From NCBI GenBank assembly GCA_009844405.1, contig VYBO01000130.1, forward strand, positions 12 through 64,011: DNA of 64,000 bases, in the 5' to 3' direction. Below the pieces are notes generated by a model, which saw only the letters and a program-made list of their open reading frames with translations, ran no database searches and had not been told where the DNA came from. Each line of letters starts with the position of its first letter. Position 1 is the first letter of the stretch. Positions 5,201 to 54,204 of the stretch are shown piece after piece. Origin of the DNA: Acidimicrobiaceae bacterium (lineage in GTDB: Bacteria; Actinomycetota; Acidimicrobiia; Acidimicrobiales; Aldehydirespiratoraceae). The translations under genes were made by a program, and so were the position numbers.

Positions 5201-6601
5201 GTGCACAACCAGGTTCGACGAGGCTGCAATGATGAGCCGATGGTGTCAGATCCGGGAGACGACGCCCCCGCGCTGGAACCGTTCCCTTCGCCGGAGATCG
5301 ACGATGACCGCCGGTTGGCCCACCGGATCGCCATGCCGATGCTTCGCTTCTTCCACTTCCAGGCGGGGGGCGGCATCGCCATGCTCGTGGCCACGGCTGT
5401 GGCGCTGGTCTGGGCCAACTCGCCCTGGCAGGACTCCTACCACACGTTGCTGGACAGCCACACCCGTGTGGAGTTCGGCAATCTGCTGGTGCTCGACGAG
5501 CCGCTGGAGGAGTGGATCAACGACGCGTTGATGGTGGTGTTCTTCTTCGTCGTCGGCCTCGAGATCAAGCGCGAGCTCGTCGTGGGCGAGCTGCGGCGTC
5601 CGGGGGCGGTGGCACTGCCGTTGATCGCGGCGCTGGGCGGCATGGCGGTGCCCGCCGTGCTCTACGCCGCGTTCAACACCGGCGGGGAGGGCTCAGCCGG
5701 CTGGGGGATCCCGATGGCGACCGACATCGCCTTCGCGCTGGGCGTGGTTGCGCTGCTGGGACGCCATGTTCCCAGCTCGCTGAAGATCTTCCTACTCACC
5801 CTGGCGATCGTCGACGACATCGGAGCGATCCTCGTCATAGCCATCTTCTACACGGATGAGATCTCGCTCGGATGGCTGGCGCTGTCGGGCGGCATCGTGC
5901 TCCTGCTGCTCGTGATGCGCCTGATACGGGTCTGGTACACCCCGATGTATCTCGTGGTCGGGGTGGCGTTCTGGCTGACGCTCTTCGAGTCGGGGGTCCA
6001 CGCCACCATCGCCGGAGTTGTGATGGGCATGTTGGCGCCGGCACGCCCCCTGGTGAGCGAGGCGAGGTCCAGCCTGCTGCTGCAGCGATCGTTCTCGGAC
6101 GGAGCCGTCAGCGTGAGGCTGGCCCGGCAGGTCGTCTTCGAGGTCCGCGAGCGAGTGTCGGTGGCCGACCGGCTGGCCGACTTCCTCCATCCTTGGACGA
6201 GTTTCTTTATCGTCCCCGTCTTCGCGCTGGCCAATGCGGGCGTCGAGCTGTCCGTGGGCTCGCTGGGCGACGCGGTGCGGTCACCGGTCACCATCGGCAT
6301 CGTGCTGGGTCTGGTGGTCGGCAAGCTGGCCGGGGTCACCGCGTTCACGTGGCTGGCTGTACGCACGGGCTTGTGCGAGCTGCCGCGGGGAGCCACCTGG
6401 ACTCAAATGCTCGGCATCGGCGGGGTGGCCGGCATCGGCTTCACGGTGTCGCTGTTCATCACCAACCTGGCCTTCGAACAGCAACTGATCACGGATCAGG
6501 CGAAGATCGGCATCCTCGTGGCGTCGACCGTCGCGGCGTTGGTCGGTGCCACTATCCTCCGCTTTTCTCGATCAGCGGACGGGCCGGCGCCGGGAGCCTG
6601 A
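5201..6601 (+). CDS. nhaA: Na+/H+ antiporter NhaA
   Basis: 466-aa ORF with NhaA hallmarks (..VALVWANSPW.., ..INDALMVVFFFVVGLEIKRE.., ..GWGIPMATDIAFALGV.., ..LAIVDDIGAI..). The true start may be an internal Met (about 5240 or 5333). Confidence 0.85.
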   Translation: MHNQVRRGCNDEPMVSDPGDDAPALEPFPSPEIDDDRRLAHRIAMPMLRFFHFQAGGGIAMLVATAVALVWANSPWQDSYHTLLDSHTRVEFGNLLVLDEPLEEWINDALMVVFFFVVGLEIKRELVVGELRRPGAVALPLIAALGGMAVPAVLYAAFNTGGEGSAGWGIPMATDIAFALGVVALLGRHVPSSLKIFLLTLAIVDDIGAILVIAIFYTDEISLGWLALSGGIVLLLLVMRLIRVWYTPMYLVVGVAFWLTLFESGVHATIAGVVMGMLAPARPLVSEARSSLLLQRSFSDGAVSVRLARQVVFEVRERVSVADRLADFLHPWTSFFIVPVFALANAGVELSVGSLGDAVRSPVTIGIVLGLVVGKLAGVTAFTWLAVRTGLCELPRGATWTQMLGIGGVAGIGFTVSLFITNLAFEQQLITDQAKIGILVASTVAALVGATILRFSRSADGPAPGA

Positions 6602-6743
6602 GCACCCGGCAAGCGCCGGAGCGGATCGTTGGTCTGGCGGCACGCCCGTTCGTCCCCTGCCACATCGTGAACAAGACCTTGCTTATCCTGTCCGAGTCCC
6701 AAACAGTTGACGGGCACCCGCCCGTCGGATCGGTTGAATCTCC

Positions 6744-9362
6744 ATGGCCAGCGCCCTAGTAATCGTCGAGTCACCCGCCAAGGCGAAGACGATCTCCGGC
6801 TACCTGGGCCACGGCTACGTCGTGGAGTCATCCATCGGCCACATCCGCGATCTGCCCAGCCGGGCGGCCGAGGTTCCCAAGGCCTACAAGTCGGAGCCGT
6901 GGGCCCGCCTGGGGATCGACGTCGACAACGAATTCAAACCGCTGTACGTGGTCAACAACGACAAGCGCCAGCAGGTCCGCAAGCTCAAGGACCTCCTGGC
7001 TAACGCGGATGAGCTCTATCTGGCCACCGACGAGGACCGGGAGGGCGAGGCCATCGCCTGGCACCTGATGGAGGTTCTCAATCCGCGGGTGCCGGTGAAG
7101 CGCATGGTCTTCCACGAGATCACCCGGGCCGCGATCTCCGCCGCGGTCGCCGCGCCCCGAGAGTTGGACCGTCGCCTGGTGGACGCCCAGGAGGCCCGCC
7201 GGATGCTCGACCGGCTCTACGGCTACGAGGTGTCGCCGGTGCTGTGGAAGAAGGTCATGCCGCAACTGTCGGCCGGGCGGGTGCAGAGCGTCGCGGTGCG
7301 CATCGTTGTAGAGCGCGAGCGGGAGCGGATGGACTTCGTCAGCGCCGGCTTCTGGAGGCTCACCGGCACGTTCGTCCCGGCGGATTCTGCCGGCGGCAAC
7401 GGCAACCGGCCCGAGTTCACCGCCGATCTCGTCCAACTCGACGGCTCTCGTATCGCCGCGGCTCGCGACTTCGGCTCCGACGGCCAACCGACCCGGGGCG
7501 ATGTCACTGTGCTCGACGAGGCGGCGGCCACCTCGCTGGCCTCGGACCTTCAGGACGCGGCCTTCGCGGTTCGGGCCCGCACCTCCAAGCCCTACCGGCG
7601 GCGTCCGGCCGCGCCCTTCATCACGTCGACCTTGCAGCAGGAGGCGGCTCGGAAGCTTCACATGACCTCGGCCGCAGCCATGCGCACGGCCCAGTCACTG
7701 TACGAGAAGGGCTACATCACCTACATGCGCACCGACAGCACGTCGTTGTCGGCGAATGCGGTGGCCGCGGCCCGCTCCGAGGTGGAGAGGCGCTACGGCT
7801 CGAGCGTGCTGCCGACGGAGCCGAGGGTTTACGCCAGCAAGGTGAAGAACGCCCAGGAGGCGCACGAGGCCATCCGGCCCGCGGGCGACGCCTTCGCCGA
7901 CCCTTCGACGGTGGCCGATCAGCTGCCCCGGCCCGAGGCCCGGCTCTACGAGTTGGTGTGGAAGCGGACGCTGGCCAGCCAGATGACCGACTGCACCGGC
8001 GAGACGGTGCAGTTGCGCGTCGGCGCCCGAAGCGCCTCGGGCCGCGACGCCGAGTTCGCGGCCAGCGGCACGGTGATAACCCATATGGGCTTCCGCGAGG
8101 TGTACACCGAGGGAACCGACGCCGGGGAAGCGAGCGACACCGACGCTGAGCTTCGCCTGCCGCCGCTGCACGAGGGAGACGGCGCGGACTGCCGCGGCCT
8201 CGAGGCGTCCGGGCACTACACCCAGCCTCCGGCCCGCTACACCGAGGCCTCGCTGGTGCGGCGCCTGGAGCAGCTCGGCGTGGGTCGGCCCTCGACCTAT
8301 TCGTCGATCATGGGCACCATCATCGACCGCGGGTACGTGTGGAAGAAGGGCTCGGCACTGGTGCCGTCGTTCACCGCCTTCTCGGTGGTGAATCTGCTGG
8401 AGCGCCACTTCCCGAAGCTGGTCGACTACGCCTTCACCGCTGAGATGGAGGACGACCTCGACCGGATCGCGACCGGTGTGGAGGAGCAGGTTCCGTGGCT
8501 TCACCGGTTCTACTTCGGCGGTGACGACGATCCCGGCCTCAAGGAGAAGGTCTCCAGCCGCCTCAGCGACATCGACGCCCGGTTGGTGAACTCGATCCCG
8601 CTGGGCACCGATGCCGACGGTGTAGAGCTGGAGGTTCGCGTGGGGCGTTACGGCCCGACCGTGCAGAGGGGCGATGATTCAGTCTCCGTGCCCGACGGCA
8701 CCGCTCCCGACGAGCTCACCGTCGAGCGGGCCCTGGAGCTGCTGGCCTCCGGGCGCGACGAGCGAATTCTTGGCGCCGATCCCGCCACCGGTCTCACCGT
8801 GGTGGCCAGGTCCGGCCGTTACGGGCCCTACGTGCAGCTTGGACTGGGCGACGAGGTTCCCGACAAGCCGAAGTTCGCGTCGCTGTTCAAGACCATGGCC
8901 CCCGAGACGGTCACGCTGGAGGATGCGCTGCGGCTGCTGGCGCTGCCCCGCACCGTCGGCACTGATCCCGCCGACGGGGTGGAGGTCACCGTTCAGAATG
9001 GTCGCTACGGGCCGTTCGTGCGCAAGGGCTCCGACAGTCGCAGCCTGCCCAGCGAGGACAAGCTGTTCACGGTCACCCTCGAGGAGTGCCTCGAGCTGCT
9101 GGCCCAGCCGAAGACCCGGGGTCGGGCCGCCCCGGCCGCACCGCTGAGAGAACTGGGGGAGGATCCCGACACCGGCCGGGCCGTCGTGGTCAAGGACGGC
9201 CGTTACGGCCACTACGTCACCGACGGCGAGACCAACGCCTCGCTGCGGTCCGGCGACGCCGTCGAGGGGCTCACCCTGGAGCGGGCCTGCGAGTTGCTGG
9301 CGGACCGTCGGGCCAAGGGTCCGGCCAAGAAGCGTCCCGCCCGCCGCAAGCGGACCGGCTAG
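6744..9362 (+). CDS. topA: DNA topoisomerase I
   Basis: 872-aa ORF with a TOPRIM N-terminus (LVIVESPAKAKTISGYLG), the active-site region (..GYITYMRTDS..) and an actinobacterial-type basic C-terminal repeat tail (GRYGPYV motifs x4). Confidence 0.95.
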   Translation: MASALVIVESPAKAKTISGYLGHGYVVESSIGHIRDLPSRAAEVPKAYKSEPWARLGIDVDNEFKPLYVVNNDKRQQVRKLKDLLANADELYLATDEDREGEAIAWHLMEVLNPRVPVKRMVFHEITRAAISAAVAAPRELDRRLVDAQEARRMLDRLYGYEVSPVLWKKVMPQLSAGRVQSVAVRIVVERERERMDFVSAGFWRLTGTFVPADSAGGNGNRPEFTADLVQLDGSRIAAARDFGSDGQPTRGDVTVLDEAAATSLASDLQDAAFAVRARTSKPYRRRPAAPFITSTLQQEAARKLHMTSAAAMRTAQSLYEKGYITYMRTDSTSLSANAVAAARSEVERRYGSSVLPTEPRVYASKVKNAQEAHEAIRPAGDAFADPSTVADQLPRPEARLYELVWKRTLASQMTDCTGETVQLRVGARSASGRDAEFAASGTVITHMGFREVYTEGTDAGEASDTDAELRLPPLHEGDGADCRGLEASGHYTQPPARYTEASLVRRLEQLGVGRPSTYSSIMGTIIDRGYVWKKGSALVPSFTAFSVVNLLERHFPKLVDYAFTAEMEDDLDRIATGVEEQVPWLHRFYFGGDDDPGLKEKVSSRLSDIDARLVNSIPLGTDADGVELEVRVGRYGPTVQRGDDSVSVPDGTAPDELTVERALELLASGRDERILGADPATGLTVVARSGRYGPYVQLGLGDEVPDKPKFASLFKTMAPETVTLEDALRLLALPRTVGTDPADGVEVTVQNGRYGPFVRKGSDSRSLPSEDKLFTVTLEECLELLAQPKTRGRAAPAAPLRELGEDPDTGRAVVVKDGRYGHYVTDGETNASLRSGDAVEGLTLERACELLADRRAKGPAKKRPARRKRTG

Positions 9363-45762: not shown

Positions 45763-48700
45763 TCAGGGCGCGGACAGGGAGCAGAGGTCCGACAAGAGGC
45801 TCCTAAGGTCCTCGACGGGGATGATCGTCGTGCCTACGTCGCTACCCAGATGGCGGAGCAGGTCGGCGGCGATGGATGGTGCGCTGGTCACGAGGATGTC
45901 CTCGATCTGCCAGTCGCCGGCGCGTCCCGCGAGTTGCATCTGACGGTGGAGCGTTGACCAGTGGTCTCGCACGAACTTGACACGCTCGTTGTGGCGGGCA
46001 ACGGCCGGGTTCTCTCCGGAAACAAGCTTGTCGAGATCCTGCTTGATTTCGCGGGCGCTCCGCGACGTAGCGAAGCTCTTGGCTTCGATGATCGAAAGAG
46101 TCTTGCGATGCTTGTTGATGACGAGCACATCGATGTCCCCTAGCTTGTCGCCGTTCTGTCGTTCTAGCGAAGTGTTTCCGAGCGACTTCACTTGCACGCT
46201 CACCTGGTTGTGCGGGTCCCTGCGGAAGATGTCGGCGACTTCGCTCTCGAACTCCCTGCTGATGCGGTTGCGCTGCTGGCTGATGTACCGCTTCATCGAG
46301 CGCGACTTGGCCGCTAGCCGGCCGGAAGACATCTGCTCGAACAGCGCTTCTGTGGCGGTCCAAGGCGCCTGGCTGCCCCAAGTGGCTACCAACTCATCGT
46401 CCCCGCATTCTCGAATCAAGACAGGACGACGTAGGAATGAGTTTTCTCTCGCGTAGCGCCACGGCGTGAAATCCGGATCGAACAGATCTGGGTCCTTATC
46501 GGCTGGCGCCGCCCTTAGCGACATCATGTTGATCATTCTTGTTGCCTGCTGTTGGTCGAGTTCGGTGGTCGTGGTGAGATCGTGCAGAAGATCGGAAACG
46601 AGCATTGTCCTCACTTGAACGTCGTTGCCCGCAGCGAGTTCGCTCAGGCGCTCCACCGCTTCAAGGAACCCGATGAAAGGCACGCCGAACTCGGCTTCGA
46701 ACACGGCCGATGCCTCTCTGAGATCGGCCGCGGGCGGAGGGTCTTGGCTTGCCATGAAGTTGGCCCACTCGGCTAGTAGGTCTTGGGCCGCAAGGGCGCG
46801 CGCATTCGTGTCGGTGCGGTCGCCCACGGCTTGGCAGTACGGATCGCTCAGGTCCATTCGTAGACAGCCGGGTTCCCGAAAGTACAGGTCCGTATCCGAT
46901 AGCTCTAGGCGGTAGGCGTCGCCAATGGAGCCCAATGCGATCATCTGCTGGGAGATCGCCAGGAGTTCGTCGTAGCGCGAGAACGACATCGGGCGGTGGC
47001 CGCCGCGGACGCAGCGCACGGCCGATTCGATCAGGTAGCGGCTCGCCAAAGCGCTCTGTTCGATCTCATGATGTTTCTCGATCGCGCTACGCATGTCGCC
47101 GCCGTTGTCAGCGTCGGTGAATGGGTTCGGGGCCATGACGCGCAACATCGTCCTGTCGCGTTGCATCCGCTCCTGCTCCGACGCGAGCAACTCAAAGGTC
47201 GTATAGGGGTCGAGTTCGCGAAGTTTCTCGCGCAACCTGCCGTCGAGGGTGCGCACGATCTCCACGATGATCTCTACGCGACGCTCCACAGGGACGGGGC
47301 CGAACTGTAGACCGAGGCCGGACGCAATCGCGTCGATCTCGTTTACCACGCCATCAAGTTCGAGGTGGTATTGCAGCCGGCACCCGGGCAGATGTGCGCC
47401 ACCGTGGACGCCGGGTACATATCCGATGCCGACATGCATGAACCGCGGGCCTTCGTGGATGCTGACGTCGTTGAGGTCGGCGTCCATAACGGCGGATGGC
47501 CGTCCTGCCAGCGACGCCAGTGACCTTGCCACTTCCACGATCAGTTCTTGTTCTGCAGCATCGGCTACCTGCGATAGGCGCGCTGCGGCATTGGGCAGCA
47601 GTCGCACGGTGATTCGGTGCTCATCACGATCGACTGCGATCTCGAACCACGGCGCGTCGTCGGCGTGGTCGACGTCCGCGAATGAGAGTACGGACCCGTC
47701 GGGATCGACGATCTCGATGACGACGCACGAGGCGCTCACGGCAATCGTGTCCAGATTCGTGTCGACACGGTCTCGTATCCGCCACAGGTGGAGCGAGAGG
47801 GCGTCTGCTACTCCCGCACAGAACCGCTGCGATTGAGTGCCAGCGCCATGGGCTCCGACCCAGCACGGCAGAGCAAGCTCAACCAGCCTCAGATGTCTCA
47901 GATCCTCGCGCTGAGGTACGTACACACGCACGCTCTCGCTCACAGCTTCGCGGCTCACAGGCACCGCTCTCGAGCCATCGGGTAGAGGGACGGCATGTGC
48001 ATCTGATCGGCGTCGCTCTCTGACAGCTAGGGGTGCTCCAAACCCGGGGGGCAGCAGGATGCCGCGTGCTTCTGGGCCGCTAAGTCGACGCGGCCTTCTG
48101 TCGGACTGGAGGTACAGCGCGTAGGCGTCTGCTGCATTGTTGACCGTTCCGTAGCCGGGCAGACGGATTTCGGCGAGGGCCCTTACGAACCGCCAGAGCC
48201 CCAGGCTGTCGTCCCGCTCGTGGTGGGCAATTGTGCGCATCTCATCGATGGTCAGCAGGAGAACCGACCGGCCTCCACCTTCAAGCTCAGTGAAGTCCGC
48301 ATGCATCGGGCGGCCGATCGGCACCATGAGCACTAGGTGAAGAACCTCACCGGCCGGGTTGGCGGCGCGCGCCGCGTCGCGGACATGTTGCATGCGCTTG
48401 TTGATGCATTGCATCTGCGAGGTGGAGTCGGTCGCCGCATGTGGCCTCGCGGTCTCGTATCCGTTGAGATCGTCAGCGAATACGACAACATGCGCGATCT
48501 TGTCAATATCGAACGCGAATAACGCATCTTGGAGATTGCTGGATGGTTGGAGTGCCAGCGAGGCGTCCAGTGGAACCCACCTCATCTGCTGACATAGACG
48601 TTCTGTCTCGGCCAGAACGGCTCGCTCGAAGGCTGCCATCAGATGGTGGTGCACGCCACTCGCGGCGGCCCTCGCTGCGACGCGATGCACTACAGAGAGG

Positions 48701-49467
48701 GCGAGCTGGTTTGGCGATGGCACGATCAGCCCGTTCGAAGAAGAATTCAGGGACAGCGGATACAGGAGGGCCCGGTCGTCGGTCAAGCGGGCGCGATCTC
48801 GCTTCCAAGCGATCCGCTTCGTGGGCCAGCACAGATCGGAGAAGCCCTCAAGCCCGCCGAATCGGGTCTCCAAGTCCGGCCCGTCGATGCAGACAGCCGC
48901 CTTCAGGCGCCGGAGCTCTTCCACTGGCGGAATGTGAACTCCTCTGTCCTTCTCGAACTTGGGTTCCTGCCAGCGTTCCAAGCCGCCGCCGCGCGCGGCC
49001 CTGTCGGAGATCCAAAGAAGGCGGGCTGCGTCGCGTCGCATCAGTTCTTGCACACCTGCAGCCTCGGCCGGAATTTTGTCGAGTGCTTGGAGCACGAACT
49101 GGCATACGGTCGCCGCGTTGGCGACCGCGCCTGGGACTGTGAGGTACTCGGCGTCGTCGAATACGACTGGTGCTGTGAACGGACTCTCGAAGGGATCTTC
49201 GTGGGCGAGCACATGGTCACTAGCGATCGGAGGACCCGTCAACAGAGCTTCAATGTCGGCGACTGCCGCTGTCCGCTGCGGAAGAGCGGGGCGCACGGCT
49301 CGCGTCGCCTCGACCAAGCGTGCGAAGCGGAGCCACTTCGTAGCGTTGTCGGGTAGGAGCTGAAGTGCCCCCGCACTCAGGAGCAGTGAGTCGGTCACAC
49401 TCCGAAGTTGCGGGCCCAAGCGGGCCAACTCGCGAGGAGTGCCCCTGCGAGATCCCGGGAGCCTCAT
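45763..49467 (-). CDS. 1234-aa protein of unknown function with a C-terminal PD-(D/E)xK-like nuclease motif
   Basis: Uninterrupted ORF whose ATG overlaps the stop of the upstream E2-like gene (ATGA at 49464-49467). C-terminal motif ..LGDIDVLVINKHRKTLSIIEAKSF.. (D-x13-E-x-K; nt 46081-46140). No Walker A or other motif recognised in the first ~1100 aa. Confidence 0.7.
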   Translation of the reverse strand: MRLPGSRRGTPRELARLGPQLRSVTDSLLLSAGALQLLPDNATKWLRFARLVEATRAVRPALPQRTAAVADIEALLTGPPIASDHVLAHEDPFESPFTAPVVFDDAEYLTVPGAVANAATVCQFVLQALDKIPAEAAGVQELMRRDAARLLWISDRAARGGGLERWQEPKFEKDRGVHIPPVEELRRLKAAVCIDGPDLETRFGGLEGFSDLCWPTKRIAWKRDRARLTDDRALLYPLSLNSSSNGLIVPSPNQLALSVVHRVAARAAASGVHHHLMAAFERAVLAETERLCQQMRWVPLDASLALQPSSNLQDALFAFDIDKIAHVVVFADDLNGYETARPHAATDSTSQMQCINKRMQHVRDAARAANPAGEVLHLVLMVPIGRPMHADFTELEGGGRSVLLLTIDEMRTIAHHERDDSLGLWRFVRALAEIRLPGYGTVNNAADAYALYLQSDRRPRRLSGPEARGILLPPGFGAPLAVRERRRSDAHAVPLPDGSRAVPVSREAVSESVRVYVPQREDLRHLRLVELALPCWVGAHGAGTQSQRFCAGVADALSLHLWRIRDRVDTNLDTIAVSASCVVIEIVDPDGSVLSFADVDHADDAPWFEIAVDRDEHRITVRLLPNAAARLSQVADAAEQELIVEVARSLASLAGRPSAVMDADLNDVSIHEGPRFMHVGIGYVPGVHGGAHLPGCRLQYHLELDGVVNEIDAIASGLGLQFGPVPVERRVEIIVEIVRTLDGRLREKLRELDPYTTFELLASEQERMQRDRTMLRVMAPNPFTDADNGGDMRSAIEKHHEIEQSALASRYLIESAVRCVRGGHRPMSFSRYDELLAISQQMIALGSIGDAYRLELSDTDLYFREPGCLRMDLSDPYCQAVGDRTDTNARALAAQDLLAEWANFMASQDPPPAADLREASAVFEAEFGVPFIGFLEAVERLSELAAGNDVQVRTMLVSDLLHDLTTTTELDQQQATRMINMMSLRAAPADKDPDLFDPDFTPWRYARENSFLRRPVLIRECGDDELVATWGSQAPWTATEALFEQMSSGRLAAKSRSMKRYISQQRNRISREFESEVADIFRRDPHNQVSVQVKSLGNTSLERQNGDKLGDIDVLVINKHRKTLSIIEAKSFATSRSAREIKQDLDKLVSGENPAVARHNERVKFVRDHWSTLHRQMQLAGRAGDWQIEDILVTSAPSIAADLLRHLGSDVGTTIIPVEDLRSLLSDLCSLSAP

Positions 49468-49985
49468 CGGTCCTCCTGGTCCGCCCCGGAGCCAGCAAGC
49501 ACTCTCTGGTTCCGACCGCTGGCGTGAGCCTTGCTCCTACGGCGGGAGAGATGCCGATGGTGTGTTGTCGATCCGACAATTGGGCCGGTGTGGTTGCCGC
49601 CGCTTCCGCACCATTCCCCGGTAGCACGCCAGAACTCGTAGTGGAGGAGCCACTCACAGGCCCACGGGAGGATGGTCACAGCGATTGGATCGCCGGGGGA
49701 CCACTGGCCGGGTTCATGCAGGCAGAGGCTGCCGTCCGGGTAGATGTGGGGCAGGTTGCCGTCGGTGTCGACGACGAGCTTCGGGCGACGGACGAAGACG
49801 CGCGGGTGATACGGCGGCGCGTAGCGGAGGGCTACAAGGTATTGCCGGCTGACCTCGCTGGGTTGGAGTTCACCGGTCCACTGCAGCACTCCAGCCTTCA
49901 GCGTCGCCTGCCCGTGCGGGTAGTGATCGTCGAGCAGTCGCGCCTCCCGTACGAGTGCGAGGGTGCGTCTATCGGTCTGGGCCAT
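49464..49985 (-). CDS. Stand-alone prokaryotic E2-like (UBC-fold) protein, CBASS type II(short)-style
   Basis: ..LPHIYPDGSLCLHEPGQW.. resembles the E2 HPN..G.ICL catalytic-Cys loop. 173 aa. The start overlaps the CD-NTase stop by 17 nt. Confidence 0.6.
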   Translation of the reverse strand: MAQTDRRTLALVREARLLDDHYPHGQATLKAGVLQWTGELQPSEVSRQYLVALRYAPPYHPRVFVRRPKLVVDTDGNLPHIYPDGSLCLHEPGQWSPGDPIAVTILPWACEWLLHYEFWRATGEWCGSGGNHTGPIVGSTTHHRHLSRRRSKAHASGRNQRVLAGSGADQEDR

Positions 49986-51105
49986 GAAAGTCGTGGGGCT
50001 GAATCTTGGTGCCGCTCCGATCGGTCACTCTTCCCTGCTGGACGACGCTGAGGCCGCCGGCAGCTGCAAGGGACGAGAGGCCCACCCCGACTCGCTTGGC
50101 TCCGGCCTGCACCGGGGCAGCACCGAGTGCAGTGCCAAGCGACCTGACGGCCTCGTCAACGCCGTTGCTGGTGGCCCAGCGGTCGGTATCGGCTACCAGC
50201 GCCTCGACCCACCGATCGAAGTGTCTCTTGCGGTCCGGGTTCGTGTTCCACTTGTCCGCGAAGTTCTCCTCCTCGTGGGCCGGGTTGGGGACCCACCAGG
50301 TGCCGTTGCGCCATTCGACGTGAGACGGGAGGCTGCGAGCCACCTTCCGGAACGCCTCGTATAGGTCGCTTTCCCCGCCGTAGGCATGCGTTGCCAAGGT
50401 CGTGATAAGGATGGAGGCTGGTTTGTCCTGGGGGTTGCTCCGGAAGAACCTGTCGCGGTGCAGCTTCAGCAACTGAACCACCCGTTGCAGCGCGGTTCTC
50501 ACCAGCCACTGAGGAACGTCTTCGACGTCTCGGCTGAGCATCACAGCCAGTTGCGCCCTGGCGACATCAACGGCCTCCCCCATGGAACTCCAGAACCAGT
50601 CGGCGTATCCGATCGGGTTGCTGTGCTGCCACAGGAACAGGTCGCGATCTGACAGCAGCACGGCGGTGTCGTCGCCGTCGGGATCGGGGATGACGGGCAG
50701 CACGTCCATGTGGAAGCGGTCACCCGCATAGATGAGTTCCCAGCAGCGGCCTCGCTCCTTCAGTGTCGGGTTTCCGTTGCTGGCTCCGCGTACGGTGATG
50801 TAATCCGTCAGTAGCTGCCCAGCCTGGGCGCGGAGTTCCTTCTGGGTGATCGACTCCTTGGTCAGGAGTCGGAGGTGGACCAGGTCGATGTCGAAGTCCC
50901 CGCCGGCGGTCGGTCGCAGCACGGTTCCCAGCCGGAACGAGCCCTGTGGGTACACTTCGCGTTCGTCGACGCCTTGGGCGACGAGCCATTGGCCGAGATC
51001 CGTGTATCGATGCTCTGCGAGCGCAAACTGCTGGGGTGAGATGTCGAGTTCCCCGGCCGTTGCGTCGAGCACTCGCGAGGTCACCTGGAGATTGCTATTG
51101 GGCAT
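49969..51105 (-). CDS. CD-NTase (cGAS/DncV-like nucleotidyltransferase, SMODS-type)
   Basis: Start MPNSNL.. (ATG 51105). Pol-beta NTase core QGSFRLGTVLRPTAGGDFDIDLV (GS-x13-DxD) plus a third acidic HMDVLP. ..SILITTLA.. helix. The N-terminal LDISPQQFALAEHRYTDLGQWL is typical of SMODS. Confidence 0.75.
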   Translation of the reverse strand: MPNSNLQVTSRVLDATAGELDISPQQFALAEHRYTDLGQWLVAQGVDEREVYPQGSFRLGTVLRPTAGGDFDIDLVHLRLLTKESITQKELRAQAGQLLTDYITVRGASNGNPTLKERGRCWELIYAGDRFHMDVLPVIPDPDGDDTAVLLSDRDLFLWQHSNPIGYADWFWSSMGEAVDVARAQLAVMLSRDVEDVPQWLVRTALQRVVQLLKLHRDRFFRSNPQDKPASILITTLATHAYGGESDLYEAFRKVARSLPSHVEWRNGTWWVPNPAHEEENFADKWNTNPDRKRHFDRWVEALVADTDRWATSNGVDEAVRSLGTALGAAPVQAGAKRVGVGLSSLAAAGGLSVVQQGRVTDRSGTKIQPHDFHGPDR

Positions 51106-52168
51106 GGGTGAGCTCCTTTCCATGGAAGGGGGTGTACGGAGAGGGGGAGTGCTGGAAGAAGTCGGCCAGCGCAGGCGAGCATGTGCGGCTCTCAGCGAGG
51201 GCACGTCCGATCAGGTCCGGGGCGGTCACCGAGTCGAGCTTGTGAAGGCCCACGGGGGTCGGCGCGTCCACCCGCACCACGTTGGACCGCCCGAGAATGA
51301 GCTGGGCATGGTTGGTGGCTGCCAGGCTCTGCCCTCGCAGCATCACCTTGAGGCCGTCCGAGCGCCAAGCGAACAATCCCCCGTTGTCAAGAGTGGTCCG
51401 GCGTTCGCGGACTTCGTTCGTGGTGCCCACATTGAGGACGCGGATGCGGCCGCGCTCACCGCCGAGACGGTCGAAGCACTCCGCCACCCCCACCAGCGTC
51501 GGGTTGTTGGCCCACACACCGCCGTCAATCAGACGGTGCGCCTCCACCCGGTGAGTGGGGAGGAACGCCGGCGCTGCCGCGGTGGCCAAGGCCACGTCCA
51601 CGGCCGCCACTCGCCAGTCGCGTCGCAGGTCCCGATGGTGGGGGGTGCGGAACAGATGGACGTGATCCGCGGCTAGGTCGTAGCTGGGGATGGCGAGTCG
51701 GACCCTCGAAGCGCCGAGAAGCCGATCTCTGAAGCGGTCTTGCAGCACTGCTCGCAGTCCAGCGGCGTTGTATCGAGGCCACCGGAGTCGTCGCAATAAC
51801 CCGTGACGTGCTCGCCCCGCCCGTGGGAAGATGCGGTCGCCGTGTTCGAGATAGATCGACAAAACCTCAGTCGGCGGCACGCCCAGCCCAAGCGCCAGAG
51901 CGATGATGCCACCCGTCGAGGTCCCGACTATGAGATCGAAGTGGTCGGCGATCGACGTGCGGAAGTCCTCCTCCCAGGCAGCCAAGGTTGCCGCAGTGAA
52001 GATCCCGCGCAGCCCGCCTCCGTCGAGCGCGAGCACTTGGAGGAGCGGAGCGCTCCGATCCGGCGACCCAGCGGGCGTGGAATCGGACTCGACACCGATC
52101 ACGTAGCCGCTGGCAGCCTGAGGCTGGTCGTCGGCGTTCTCAGGCTTGGCTATCCGGATCTCAGTCAT
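51095..52168 (-). CDS. capV: Patatin-like phospholipase (CapV-like CBASS effector)
   Basis: Oxyanion DGGGLRG, nucleophile elbow GTSTGG and catalytic Asp in IDGGVWANNP. The stop overlaps the CD-NTase start by 11 nt. Confidence 0.8.
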   Translation of the reverse strand: MTEIRIAKPENADDQPQAASGYVIGVESDSTPAGSPDRSAPLLQVLALDGGGLRGIFTAATLAAWEEDFRTSIADHFDLIVGTSTGGIIALALGLGVPPTEVLSIYLEHGDRIFPRAGRARHGLLRRLRWPRYNAAGLRAVLQDRFRDRLLGASRVRLAIPSYDLAADHVHLFRTPHHRDLRRDWRVAAVDVALATAAAPAFLPTHRVEAHRLIDGGVWANNPTLVGVAECFDRLGGERGRIRVLNVGTTNEVRERRTTLDNGGLFAWRSDGLKVMLRGQSLAATNHAQLILGRSNVVRVDAPTPVGLHKLDSVTAPDLIGRALAESRTCSPALADFFQHSPSPYTPFHGKELTHAQ

Positions 52169-52232
52169 GCCGCGCTCCTCGGCTCGGCTCTAGGGTCCAC
52201 CACAAGCACATAACGTCAGTGTAATATCACTT

Positions 52233-52247
52233 CAACATGTTGTCAAC
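52233..52247. promoter_or_regulatory. Overlapping palindromes at the start of the XRE-HIRAN gene, plus a TAATAT -10-like hexamer (52222-52227)
   Basis: CAACATGTTG (52233-52242) and GTTGTCAAC (52239-47) straddle the ATG at 52237. TAATAT lies 9 nt upstream of the ATG with no SD sequence, which is a leaderless-type arrangement. The site sits in the 68-bp divergent intergenic region shared with the patatin gene. Confidence 0.4.
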
Positions 52248-53217
52248 CCGAGGCCTCATCTCCGTGACTGATCCATCCCCACCACCGGTGCTGACCTTGT
52301 CGGAGCTGAGACGGCGGCTCGGACGATCACAAGCCGAGGTCGCTACCACGATCGGCACGACCCAATCAGGCGTCTCGCGCATCGAGCACCAGGCCGACAT
52401 GCACGTGTCAACACTCAACGAGTACGCCTTCGCCCTAGGTGGGCGCCTGCGCTTGATTGTGGAACACGGCGACGATCACACCGAGATCGGGATCCCGGCG
52501 CTACGTCAGGAGCGACGCGAGCAGCGTCGAGAGTTCCGTGTGATCTGGCAGGACCAACCAACCCGGAGCCTGGTGCAGGTCGGGTGGCTCGTGTACACCG
52601 GCGACGAGTTCACGTTCTCATACGTCGACGAAGCCAAGTCCCACGAGCGGTTCCAGCCATTCCCCGCCTTCCCGCGCCTGGATGAGACCTACAAGGCAAG
52701 CGAACTTTTTCCGTACTTCGCCCTACGACTCACCAGCGCGGCCGATCCGCACTACGACGCTGTGTTGGACGCACTGGGACTCACCCGTGAAGACGCGACA
52801 CCCGTGGAACTGCTTGCACGGTCACCCGACTCGCCCCATGACACCATCCAGGTAGTGCCCGAACCCACGGAAATGGCCGATGGCACGCTCGTTCGCCTGT
52901 TTCTCGTGTCCGGTACCCGCCACGCAGACGAACGGGATCCCGACACCGTGAGCCGACTCATCGAGGACCTCGCTACGGACTCACTCCTCGACCTCGTGGC
53001 CGAGCCCAACAACCGGCACAACCCTCAGGCGCTTCATATCGCGGCAAATGGCAAACGACTCGGCTGGGTACCCGACTACTTGCTCTCGGAGATTCACGGC
53101 TACATCGACACAGACCGTCCAGTGTCAATCGCTGTCGCTCAAGCGAACGGTCCGGACGCCCCACCGCACATGCGCCTCCTATGCCGACTGACCGTAGCCC
53201 CCGGGACACCCGATTGA
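52237..53217 (+). CDS. XRE-family HTH protein with a C-terminal HIRAN domain
   Basis: N-terminal HTH: LTLSELRRRLGRSQAEVATTIGTTQSGVSRIEH. C-terminal HIRAN-like: ..LLDLVAEPNNRHNPQALHIAANGKRLGWVPDYLLSEI.. (EPxNxxDxxA..G..lGyvP pattern). Confidence 0.7.
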   Translation: MLSTRGLISVTDPSPPPVLTLSELRRRLGRSQAEVATTIGTTQSGVSRIEHQADMHVSTLNEYAFALGGRLRLIVEHGDDHTEIGIPALRQERREQRREFRVIWQDQPTRSLVQVGWLVYTGDEFTFSYVDEAKSHERFQPFPAFPRLDETYKASELFPYFALRLTSAADPHYDAVLDALGLTREDATPVELLARSPDSPHDTIQVVPEPTEMADGTLVRLFLVSGTRHADERDPDTVSRLIEDLATDSLLDLVAEPNNRHNPQALHIAANGKRLGWVPDYLLSEIHGYIDTDRPVSIAVAQANGPDAPPHMRLLCRLTVAPGTPD

Positions 53218-53284: not shown

Positions 53285-53830
53285 CTAGGTCTTCGAGCGG
53301 GACGAGTCCCTCGCGGCTTTGCGGCGCAGCAGTCGCAGGACTCGTGTGATCCGGTCGTTGACCTGGCACTGGCCGTGAAGTCGGGCGATCTTGTCGCAGG
53401 CGTACTCAACCACGCCGATCGCGGCCACAGTGAGGGCCTCAGCGCTTTCGGCGGTGGCGATCTTCTCGACCTCGGGCATCATCCGCCACCACCGGTGCTC
53501 GTTGCCGAAGGCGCGGCGGCTGGCCCGCCACATGGTCACGTCGTCGAGGGTCACCTGGTCACCGAAGCGCGCTATCACCGTGGTCTGGTCCTCGTCGGGG
53601 AGGTGGGCCACGACGGTGGCGATGTCGCGGGAGTACAGGGCCCGCGCGTCGGTCTGCATCGCCGCTCCGAGTGCCCGCAGCGCTTCTTCGATGACGGCTG
53701 CGGCGCCCTGCGACGGGGCGCAGTGGCGCCAGGGGTCGTTGTATTCTTGGCTGCGAGGGCTGATCTCGATTAGGCGCCGGTGTGCTTGCTCGAGGTGGTA
53801 GTAGGCGGCCTCGATGTCGGTGTCGGGCAG
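53285..53830 (-). CDS. HEPN-like protein (partner of the upstream MNT); start unresolved
   Basis: Helical protein with ..AAYYHLEQAHRRLIEI.. and an Rx5H motif (RAFGNEH). The only upstream ATG (53947) would overlap the MNT gene by 178 nt. No ATG or GTG lies near the MNT stop, so this is either a frameshift or a non-canonical start. Confidence 0.4.
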   Translation of the reverse strand: MPDTDIEAAYYHLEQAHRRLIEISPRSQEYNDPWRHCAPSQGAAAVIEEALRALGAAMQTDARALYSRDIATVVAHLPDEDQTTVIARFGDQVTLDDVTMWRASRRAFGNEHRWWRMMPEVEKIATAESAEALTVAAIGVVEYACDKIARLHGQCQVNDRITRVLRLLRRKAARDSSRSKT

Positions 53831-54204
53831 GGCCTGGGCTTGTCCCAGACCACGGCGCTGTCGTCTCCCTGGCTGGCCGCGACAACCACCAGGTTGTCTC
53901 GGATCGCCGCCGCGAACGACGACGCCATCTTGTTCTGCGCCGCCCACTCAGCCACGTCGGTGACCCAGATTGTCACGTAGTGTCCGCAGGCGTCGCCCGC
54001 AATGCGCATCAGGTCAAGTCGCAGCTGCCAGCGGTTCTTGTAGTCCACGTCGTCGAAGATGGCCACAAGGTCGATGTCGCTGACCGGATCGGCGCCGCCG
54101 GCCACAACCGAGCCGTAGGCCAGCACCTCGCGGGCTCCGGCACCGGTGAGGGCCCGGCCGGCTGTTCGGGCGTCCTCAAGAGTGGGCGCGGCCATCTCGG
54201 TCAC
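53770..54204 (-). CDS. Nucleotidyltransferase-domain protein (MNT-like)
   Basis: REVLAYGSVVAGGADPVSDIDLVAIF (GS-x10-DxD). The C-terminal ~25 aa (PRPCPTPTSRPPTTT..) look like out-of-frame read-through. Confidence 0.65.
   Translation of the reverse strand: MTEMAAPTLEDARTAGRALTGAGAREVLAYGSVVAGGADPVSDIDLVAIFDDVDYKNRWQLRLDLMRIAGDACGHYVTIWVTDVAEWAAQNKMASSFAAAIRDNLVVVAASQGDDSAVVWDKPRPCPTPTSRPPTTTSSKHTGA

Follow-up and report, generated by a model that had tools for sequence, protein, structure and literature searches.

Genes and start codon at the locus

The stretch of DNA analyzed here, referred to as the window, comprises 64,000 nucleotides (nt) of contig VYBO01000130.1 from an Acidimicrobiaceae bacterium and carries a gene for a predicted transcriptional regulator that lies back to back with an operon for a cyclic oligonucleotide-based antiphage signalling system (CBASS). 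In the list of open reading frames (ORFs), this gene appears as a plus-strand frame encoding 326 residues (52237..53217), oriented divergently to the minus-strand patatin gene (51095..52168), whose start codon occupies positions 52166-52168. PADLOC recognizes the CBASS phospholipase effector (E=7e-100), the cyclase (E=7e-105) and the E2 protein (E=9e-41) in the operon, and the NCBIfam model CBASS_lipase matches the patatin gene (E=1e-76). The locus is organized as follows, homologous loci being numbered with the prefix L or P:

45763..52168, minus strand: presumed target operon, with patatin (51095-52168), CD-NTase (49969-51204), E2 (49464-49985) and Upx-like (45763-49467, 1234 residues) genes
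52169..52263: regulatory region of 95 bp between the divergent genes (55.8% GC), alignable between patatin-type and type III loci
52250-52253, plus strand: Shine-Dalgarno-like GAGG, 10 nt before GTG 52264, with GGAG or GAGG equivalently placed in homologous loci
52264..53217, plus strand: regulator gene, 317 residues from GTG 52264, delimited by homologue alignment and by the upstream sequences of L005, L006 and L007

The frame and its divergent orientation had been noted in an earlier reading of the sequence (the original prediction), which placed the start codon at ATG 52237. Comparison with homologues indicates that translation most likely starts at GTG 52264. The in-frame ATG would prepend nine codons, none of them conserved, whereas all 28 aligned homologues start with M(T/S)DP.. 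at the position equivalent to the GTG, and L008 has an ATG there. In L005, the nearest relative (93% identity), the upstream ATG lies in another frame and reads into a TGA; L006 and L007 have in-frame stops three codons ahead of the conserved V(S/T)DP start. These observations argue against a leaderless transcript beginning at ATG 52237, which had been proposed from a missing Shine-Dalgarno sequence; the TAATAT hexamer invoked for it lies 9 nt from that ATG in any case. As a result, the intergenic region, previously given as 68 bp, measures 95 bp from the conserved start, although its lower GC content holds (55.8% against 68.2% for the window), and the palindromes CAACATGTTG and GTTGTCAAC, which are present where they had been placed, lie in the promoter or 5′ untranslated region (5′UTR) and do not straddle the start.

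Domain architecture of the predicted regulator

Profile searches and a structural model assign three domains to the protein, with a HipS-like domain between the helix-turn-helix (HTH) and HIRAN domains that the original prediction had recognized; the simple HTH-HIRAN layout proposed there overlooked it.

52288..52497, plus strand: XRE HTH of the HigA2/HigA3 type with a C-terminal beta-lid (dimerization), from Pfam HTH_3, profile comparison with the PDB, and fold
52519..52833, plus strand: HipS-like domain, equivalent to HipA N-subdomain 1, from PADLOC PDC-M03B, Pfam Couple_hipA, and fold
52840..53202, plus strand: HIRAN domain with the core EPNNRHNPQAL...GWVPDY, from Pfam HIRAN, fold, and residue mapping

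The N-terminal XRE-type HTH is supported by Pfam HTH_3 (E=2.5e-5). A profile of the full-length family alignment, compared with PDB sequences, retrieved the HTH only, matching Mycobacterium tuberculosis HigA3 (E=2.5e-13) and HigA2 (E=4.5e-8); HIRAN and HipS required fold comparison or sub-alignments. The HigA match spans the helices plus the GGRLRLVVEHG..EI strands that make up the beta-lid dimerization element, and the fold of this domain matches 6ltz, 6lty and 7ewc with TM scores of 0.76-0.82 at 34-38% identity, the scores for 6ltz and 6lty being 0.78-0.82.

PDC-M03B matches residues 97-320 (E=1.7e-60), which covers the HipS-like and HIRAN halves together. Pfam Couple_hipA gives a weak match to the single sequence (E=0.014-0.057) and is present in 22 of 29 members, and the predicted fold of the middle domain matches Legionella HipS 8ezr_A (HipS-HipT complex) and 7vkb_B with a probability of 1.0 and TM scores of 0.76-0.77. 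This domain had a predicted local distance difference test score (pLDDT) below 50 in a first AlphaFold model built from 29 sequences, which was remedied by a 52-sequence alignment (pLDDT 88.6 and pTM 0.71 for the whole model).

The C-terminal HIRAN domain is likewise weak in the single sequence (E=0.011-0.035), but PF08797 matches 28 of the 29 members, with a best E value of 7.8e-7. Its fold matches the HLTF HIRAN domain (4xzg/4s0n/5bnh, Foldseek probability 1.0) and bacterial lp_0118 (3k2y); both the beta-barrel fold and the EPxNPxD/N core motif are present. Conservation is strong across all three domains, and searches with Pfam, NCBIfam and PADLOC gave no WYL or WCX match in the protein.

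Association with CBASS operons across genomes

Homologous loci were collected from species-representative genomes (20 full-length loci), metagenome contigs and exact-protein look-ups, and their neighbours were annotated using seeded phmmer searches, PADLOC and Pfam. The assessable set consists of 43 non-identical loci with sufficient upstream sequence. At 35 of them an intact CBASS operon is directly divergent from the regulator gene, in at least seven architectures (CDN, CD-NTase):

patatin-CDN-E2: 12 loci
TIR-SAVED/CDN/E1E2: 8 loci
TRIP13-Cap8-HORMA-CDN-4TM: 6 loci
CDN-HORMA-TRIP13-NucC: 5 loci
CDN-TRIP13 with a TIR-SAVED-family effector: 1 locus (L023)
CDN-HORMA-AAA-SAVED nuclease: 1 locus
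HNH-SAVED/CDN/E1E2: 1 locus
SMODS+E1E2: 1 locus

This bears out the co-occurrence of HTH-HIRAN genes with CD-NTase operons that the original prediction had named as a check. The other eight loci comprise one CBASS remnant (L116), four without a recognizable defence neighbour and three at which the gene is divergent from another immune-like operon (L117, 5075-6899; L118, 2290-6863; P0140), these partners being Multi_ubiq with ThiF (Bub-like), a 382-residue gene with a 1142-residue E2-E1-JAB-patatin fusion, and AAA-?-TIR-TIR-SLOG.

A maximum-likelihood phylogeny of the regulators contains at least 15 switches of operon type, and the near-identical sister regulators of L013 and L015 face a type III operon with NucC and a type II operon with TIR-SAVED, respectively. 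Such repeated switching and sister swaps would not be seen for a gene whose only tie to CBASS was a common defence island.

The family is rare: a pattern scan of about 185,000 species genomes found it in 20, nearly restricted to Actinomycetota and chiefly in Acidimicrobiia. Among 401 evenly sampled genomes of the class, the HTH-bearing form occurs in the window's own genome only, the other matches being HTH-less HipN proteins. No relative was found on viral contigs, and a phage origin was set aside on that ground.

Three individual loci add detail. At L116, the regulator gene (7001-7954) adjoins a 190-residue minus-strand gene (6326-6898) whose product fuses about 85 N-terminal residues of a CBASS patatin to about 45 C-terminal residues of a CBASS E2; the CD-NTase gene is deleted, while the regulator gene and the downstream Upx-like gene are both retained, which hints that the cassette also drives the Upx-like gene. 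A 198,413-bp metagenome contig encodes three paralogous regulators (P0022, P0043 and P0050), of which P0022 and P0043 each adjoin a different operon. In L023 (9899-10928), an apparent frameshift divides the regulator gene into a pair of overlapping ORFs; it is flanked by a Gp49-like gene on one side and a type III CBASS operon on the other.

Predicted promoters and candidate operators in the intergenic region

Patatin-type and type III loci are alignable from the regulator start as far as the CAT start codon of the first operon gene, the CCTC complementary to its Shine-Dalgarno site included, despite the first operon genes being unrelated. This alignability across operon types, ending at the start of the first gene, indicates that the operon promoter and 5′UTR are part of the regulator cassette. 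Over their first ~8 codons, the unrelated first genes are faintly alike (patatin MTEIRIAK versus TRIP13 MEETGIVR; window 52140-52168 compared with L002 and L009), which may reflect a recombination junction just inside the first ORF or a chance likeness.

The following elements were located in the region:

52218..52246, minus strand: predicted CBASS promoter, with -35 TTGACA (52246-52241), a 17-nt spacer and -10 TACACT (52223-52218)
52222..52227, plus strand: -10-like hexamer TAATAT of the regulator's own predicted promoter, overlapping the CBASS -10 on the opposite strand
52209-52214 and 52225-52230, plus strand: CATAAC and TATCAC, two direct candidate half-sites of the TAT(C/A)AC type, 16 bp apart
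52193..52201: GGGTCCACC box in the predicted CBASS 5′UTR, kept in most of 27 aligned loci whatever the first gene
52233-52242 and 52239-52247: the palindromes CAACATGTTG and GTTGTCAAC of the original prediction, present, with their conservation assessed in the 27-locus alignment

The predicted CBASS promoter scores 10/12 matches, with 0.0 expected in shuffles, and is the sole strong minus-strand promoter. The same TTGACA-17-TACACT arrangement is found in L005 and L042. A related TTGACG-17-TATAGT promoter lies 11 bp further upstream in L001 and L006-L008; L002 and L009 carry weaker variants of it, and both promoters are present in L042.

Aligning 27 loci gap-free, with the -10-like hexamer as the anchor, places GTA(A/C/G)TAT at the same position in all of them, with the variants GTGCTAT, GTGATAT or GTGCTAG in L045, L014 and L047. 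The consensus reads GGGTCCACC-N3-AG-N2-TATCACGTCAGC-GTACTATCACGTCAAC-GTGAT, and its half-site portion TATCACGTCAGC-GTAC-TATCACGTCAAC-GTGAT. Two signals rise above background in this alignment, namely (i) the 16-bp direct repeat, with 7.8/13 identities against 3.3+-0.7, and (ii) two dyad centres 16 bp apart, with 5.3 and 4.4 of nine complementary positions against 2.3+-0.5. The downstream family dyad, TATCACG-TCAA-CGTGATA, has a 7-4-7 layout. M. tuberculosis HigA3 binds the 7-4-7 palindrome TATAACC-TAGA-GGTTATA over its own -10 box (PMC7340258), so that the two share an identical geometry and a similar half-site.

The palindromes CAACATGTTG and GTTGTCAAC, evaluated here as a possible operator, are perfect in L005 only, degenerate in L042 and absent from the other relatives. 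We rejected them in that role because they are not conserved past the two closest relatives and because GTTGTCAAC, which encloses the -35 hexamer of the CBASS promoter, is accounted for by it. The two palindromes do not by themselves exceed chance, an analytic estimate giving about 0.08 for a perfect 10-bp palindrome in 95 bp.

The GGGTCCACC box is a candidate second operator or RNA element. It occurs as a single copy in the window, and in L013, L015, L049 and L051 it lies within a 6-7-bp hairpin (CTCCGG-TCCAC-CCGGAG in L015 and L049).

Toxin genes, kinase genes and other neighbours

The family divides into two subgroups. Subgroup A, which includes the window, has proteins of about 317 residues, and a toxin gene is absent from the window and from all subgroup A loci. 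Subgroup B proteins are about 342 residues long, roughly 50% identical, and carry an N-terminal extension; a Gp49/HigB-like toxin gene (PF05973) precedes them, except in L019 (none) and P0140 (none called), and overlaps the regulator start by 4 nt wherever gene calls are available:

L113, 6642-7004: subgroup B toxin gene, 4-nt overlap
L114, 6684-7004: subgroup B toxin gene, 4-nt overlap
L115, 6642-7004: subgroup B toxin gene, 4-nt overlap
L017-L023: further subgroup B loci, mostly with such a toxin gene (none in L019)

Subgroup B thus presents a higB-higA::hipS::HIRAN cassette, usually adjoining CBASS. From these sequences, the predicted regulator looks like a HigA antitoxin that gained a HipS-HIRAN module and, in subgroup A, lost its toxin.

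A kinase partner was considered and rejected: no kinase gene adjoins any of the 43 loci, no HipA_C or PDC-M03A match was found in the window neighbourhood, and the PDC-M03A kinase is absent from 11 of 18 regulator-carrying genomes, complete chromosomes included, which argues that such a partner is not required. The window's own genome does encode a canonical hipIN pair elsewhere, on contig C34 (= L112; 1886-3644, minus strand), with a 319-residue PDC-M03A kinase (E=3.6e-76) followed by a 271-residue HipN (PDC-M03B, E=7.3e-80) that shares 35% identity with the window protein over its HipS-HIRAN half. Fragmented HipA_C matches, one with an internal TGA, occur on contigs C33 (43889-44746) and C139 (12708-13490) of this genome and are possibly decayed HipA-family kinase genes.

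Downstream of the predicted regulator, the minus-strand segment 53285-54780 of the window contains an MntA-like nucleotidyltransferase gene (53770-54204), an overlapping ORF and a 182-residue gene; it is a separate MNT/HEPN-type module outside the regulator cassette. Searches with PADLOC, Pfam and NCBIfam found no peptidase gene beside the regulator gene, its neighbours being patatin upstream and the MNT/HEPN-like pair downstream.

Proposed mechanism and alternative explanations

The silencing and activation of CBASS and other suicide-type immune systems are understood only in part. Our comparison of loci, together with the domain assignment, suggests that the protein is most likely a switch for such systems. 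We think it probable that it acts as a one-component transcriptional regulator of the divergent immune operon, most likely as a repressor; we are more confident that it is functionally coupled to this operon, and less confident that it senses DNA ends. In the proposed mechanism, the HigA3-like HTH and beta-lid would dimerize and bind TATCAC-type sites overlapping both back-to-back promoters, and occupancy of these sites would repress the CBASS operon as well as the regulator's own gene. The HipS-HIRAN module, apparently borrowed from HipN-type partners of HipA-like kinases, would serve as the signal receiver: a ligand on HIRAN would act through the HipS-like domain on the HTH dimer and relieve repression. 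Our best guess for this ligand is free nucleic-acid 3′ ends or single-stranded DNA (ssDNA), derived from phage DNA or DNA damage. What the sequences show is the domain architecture, the divergent adjacency to many CBASS types, the co-transfer of the promoter region, the predicted promoters and the repeated sites; that the protein binds these sites and represses, what it senses and in which direction it responds are inferred.

Several observations weigh against this model. Adjacency is evidence of functional linkage and is not proof of a transcriptional link, and the stretch was found only in DNA runs and contigs of sponge metagenomes, none of them RNA, so that no transcription start site is mapped. 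In the window itself, the consensus dyads are weak (4/9 positions each) and the operator is not pinned down, only the direct half-sites CATAAC and TATCAC standing out. In subgroup B, eight of 12 assessable loci face CBASS and four are not beside it; as a toxin gene precedes it, the subgroup B protein could be chiefly an antitoxin. The HIRAN pocket raises a further difficulty. The fold, the EPNNP...A(I/L) core and an arginine equivalent to R71 are shared with the HIRAN domain of HLTF, and the Y72 position is His/Tyr in the family; in contrast, D94, which binds the 3′-OH in HLTF, aligns with a near-invariant Asn (by a weak profile alignment, E about 0.09, that is consistent with the fold), the Y93 position is variable (His in the window protein) and H110 is replaced by an invariant Trp, so that the ligand may differ. 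Actinobacterial HipN HIRAN domains also are without most DNA-contact motifs (Gerdes et al., PMC8262856). Given these substitutions and the motif loss in HipN, canonical DNA-end binding by the family HIRAN appears doubtful.

A variant of the model therefore deserves mention, in which HipS-HIRAN is a portable sensor with an altered pocket whose ligand is a nucleotide-like small molecule instead of long DNA ends. We regard it as improbable; candidate ligands might be short 3′-OH oligonucleotides released when DNA is degraded, or a molecule, cyclic or linear, made by the adjacent CD-NTase or TIR operon.

An explanation of a different kind, which we consider unlikely though not negligible, is that the protein is a post-translational sensor or partner of CBASS proteins, with or without a transcriptional role. 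For instance, HIRAN could detect phage DNA ends while the HipS-like domain binds and gates the CD-NTase or another component. HipS domains do inhibit HipT kinases through protein-protein contact (fold match to the complex 8ezr), all three domains are strongly conserved and, to our knowledge, the activator of many CBASS cyclases is unknown. However, the partner operons have no protein in common except highly divergent CD-NTases, and they include HORMA/TRIP13-sensor types and non-CBASS operons. A protein partner would also be expected to co-evolve with its operon, yet the predicted regulator swaps operon types repeatedly, and the conserved HTH and promoter cassette point to DNA binding.

We give little weight to the idea that the protein is an orphan, toxin-less HigA-type antitoxin that autoregulates only its own gene and lies beside CBASS through defence-island clustering, with no control over the operon. 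The homology of the N-terminal domain to HigA2/HigA3, the overlapping Gp49/HigB-like gene ahead of subgroup B members and some members without a CBASS neighbour (L018, L021, L054 and L114) are all in keeping with it. Island co-occurrence, however, would not place the gene immediately divergent from the operon, about 95-200 bp away, at 35 of 43 loci, and it leaves unexplained the 5′UTR, Shine-Dalgarno sequence and start codon common to unrelated operons. Moreover, the predicted operon promoter overlaps the regulator -10 in the window clade (the window, L005, L042, L001, L006-L008, L002 and L009), and the window's subgroup has no toxin gene.

It is very improbable that the protein is a HipN-type antitoxin neutralizing, or phosphorylated by, a HipI-like kinase in trans, with an HTH that autoregulates as HipB does: the PDC-M03B match of its HipS-HIRAN half, the PDC-M03A and PDC-M03B pair on C34 and the precedent of CapK/CapS for kinase control of immune-operon repressors (PMC13373217) speak for it, but a kinase gene lies beside 0/43 loci, PDC-M03A is unmatched in 11/18 carrier genomes and the C34 kinase already has its own HipN.

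Comparison with known systems and implications

Three regulator cassettes of this kind have so far been described, and all three sense ssDNA. They are CapW, CapH/CapP and CapK/CapS, which respond to DNA damage and control CBASS and other immune operons from a divergent position (PMC9122588, PMC11662680, PMC13373217). The predicted regulator resembles this class in that its gene lies immediately ahead of, and in the opposite orientation to, immune operons of many unrelated kinds. CapW, of the BrxR family, is a winged HTH-WYL-WCX protein that binds the shared promoter region and whose C-terminal sensor binds ssDNA, relieving repression (PMC9122588, PMC11662680). Like CapW, the predicted regulator consists of a single protein whose gene is divergent from CBASS or another defence operon. 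Unlike CapW, to which it has no sequence or fold relation, it combines a HigA-type XRE HTH head with a HipS and HIRAN sensor in place of WYL-WCX, and its family is far rarer. CapH with CapP and CapK with CapS form cassettes upstream of many immune operons (CBASS, Bub and others) that respond to DNA damage or ssDNA (10.1101/2022.04.27.489752; PMC13373217). The XRE-type HTH is shared with CapH (weak fold match to 7t5u), whereas CapH/CapP pairs a repressor with an ImmA/IrrE-type metallopeptidase and CapK/CapS a repressor with a kinase; here, the regulator gene has neither a peptidase nor a kinase gene beside it, and the presumed sensor and repressor form one fusion protein. The original prediction of a divergent CBASS regulator distinct from CapW and CapH/CapP has gained comparative adjacency, at least seven operon architectures and a co-travelling promoter, although the layout it assumed was too simple.

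HipN of hipIN modules is a putative antitoxin with HipS-like and HIRAN domains (PADLOC PDC-M03B; Gerdes, Baerentsen & Brodersen 2021, PMC8262856). The window protein shares this HipS-like and HIRAN unit, but HipN is without an HTH and always follows the gene for HipI, a short HipA-type kinase, whereas the window protein has a HigA-type HTH, no kinase neighbour, and CBASS beside it. The M. tuberculosis proteins HigA3 and HigA2 (6lty, 6ltz, 7ewc) have a homologous HTH and beta-lid dimer domain; they are about 100 residues long with no C-terminal sensor, and the upstream HigB/Gp49-like toxin gene is kept in subgroup B and lost in the window's subgroup.

Divergent signal-responsive immune-operon cassettes, all three domains and the HipS-HIRAN pairing are already known. 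A HipS-HIRAN unit fused to a HigA-type HTH and systematically paired with CBASS was not found described in the literature searched, many subscription papers lying outside that search, so that a prior description is possible. The practical reach of the finding is modest, given how seldom the family occurs and how few of its members lie outside Actinomycetota. Within these bounds, the locus would add to CapW, CapH/CapP and CapK/CapS a fourth, unrelated cassette, assembled from toxin-antitoxin parts. If the small-ligand variant were true, it would imply feedback or priming control over immune-operon transcription and would make this the first HIRAN domain acting as the small-ligand sensor of a transcription factor. 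HipS-HIRAN is placed in a second context, one that has no kinase, and this suggests that the unit serves generally as a sensor module and not just as a kinase antidote, and the family offers a one-protein system suited to asking what bacterial HIRAN domains bind.

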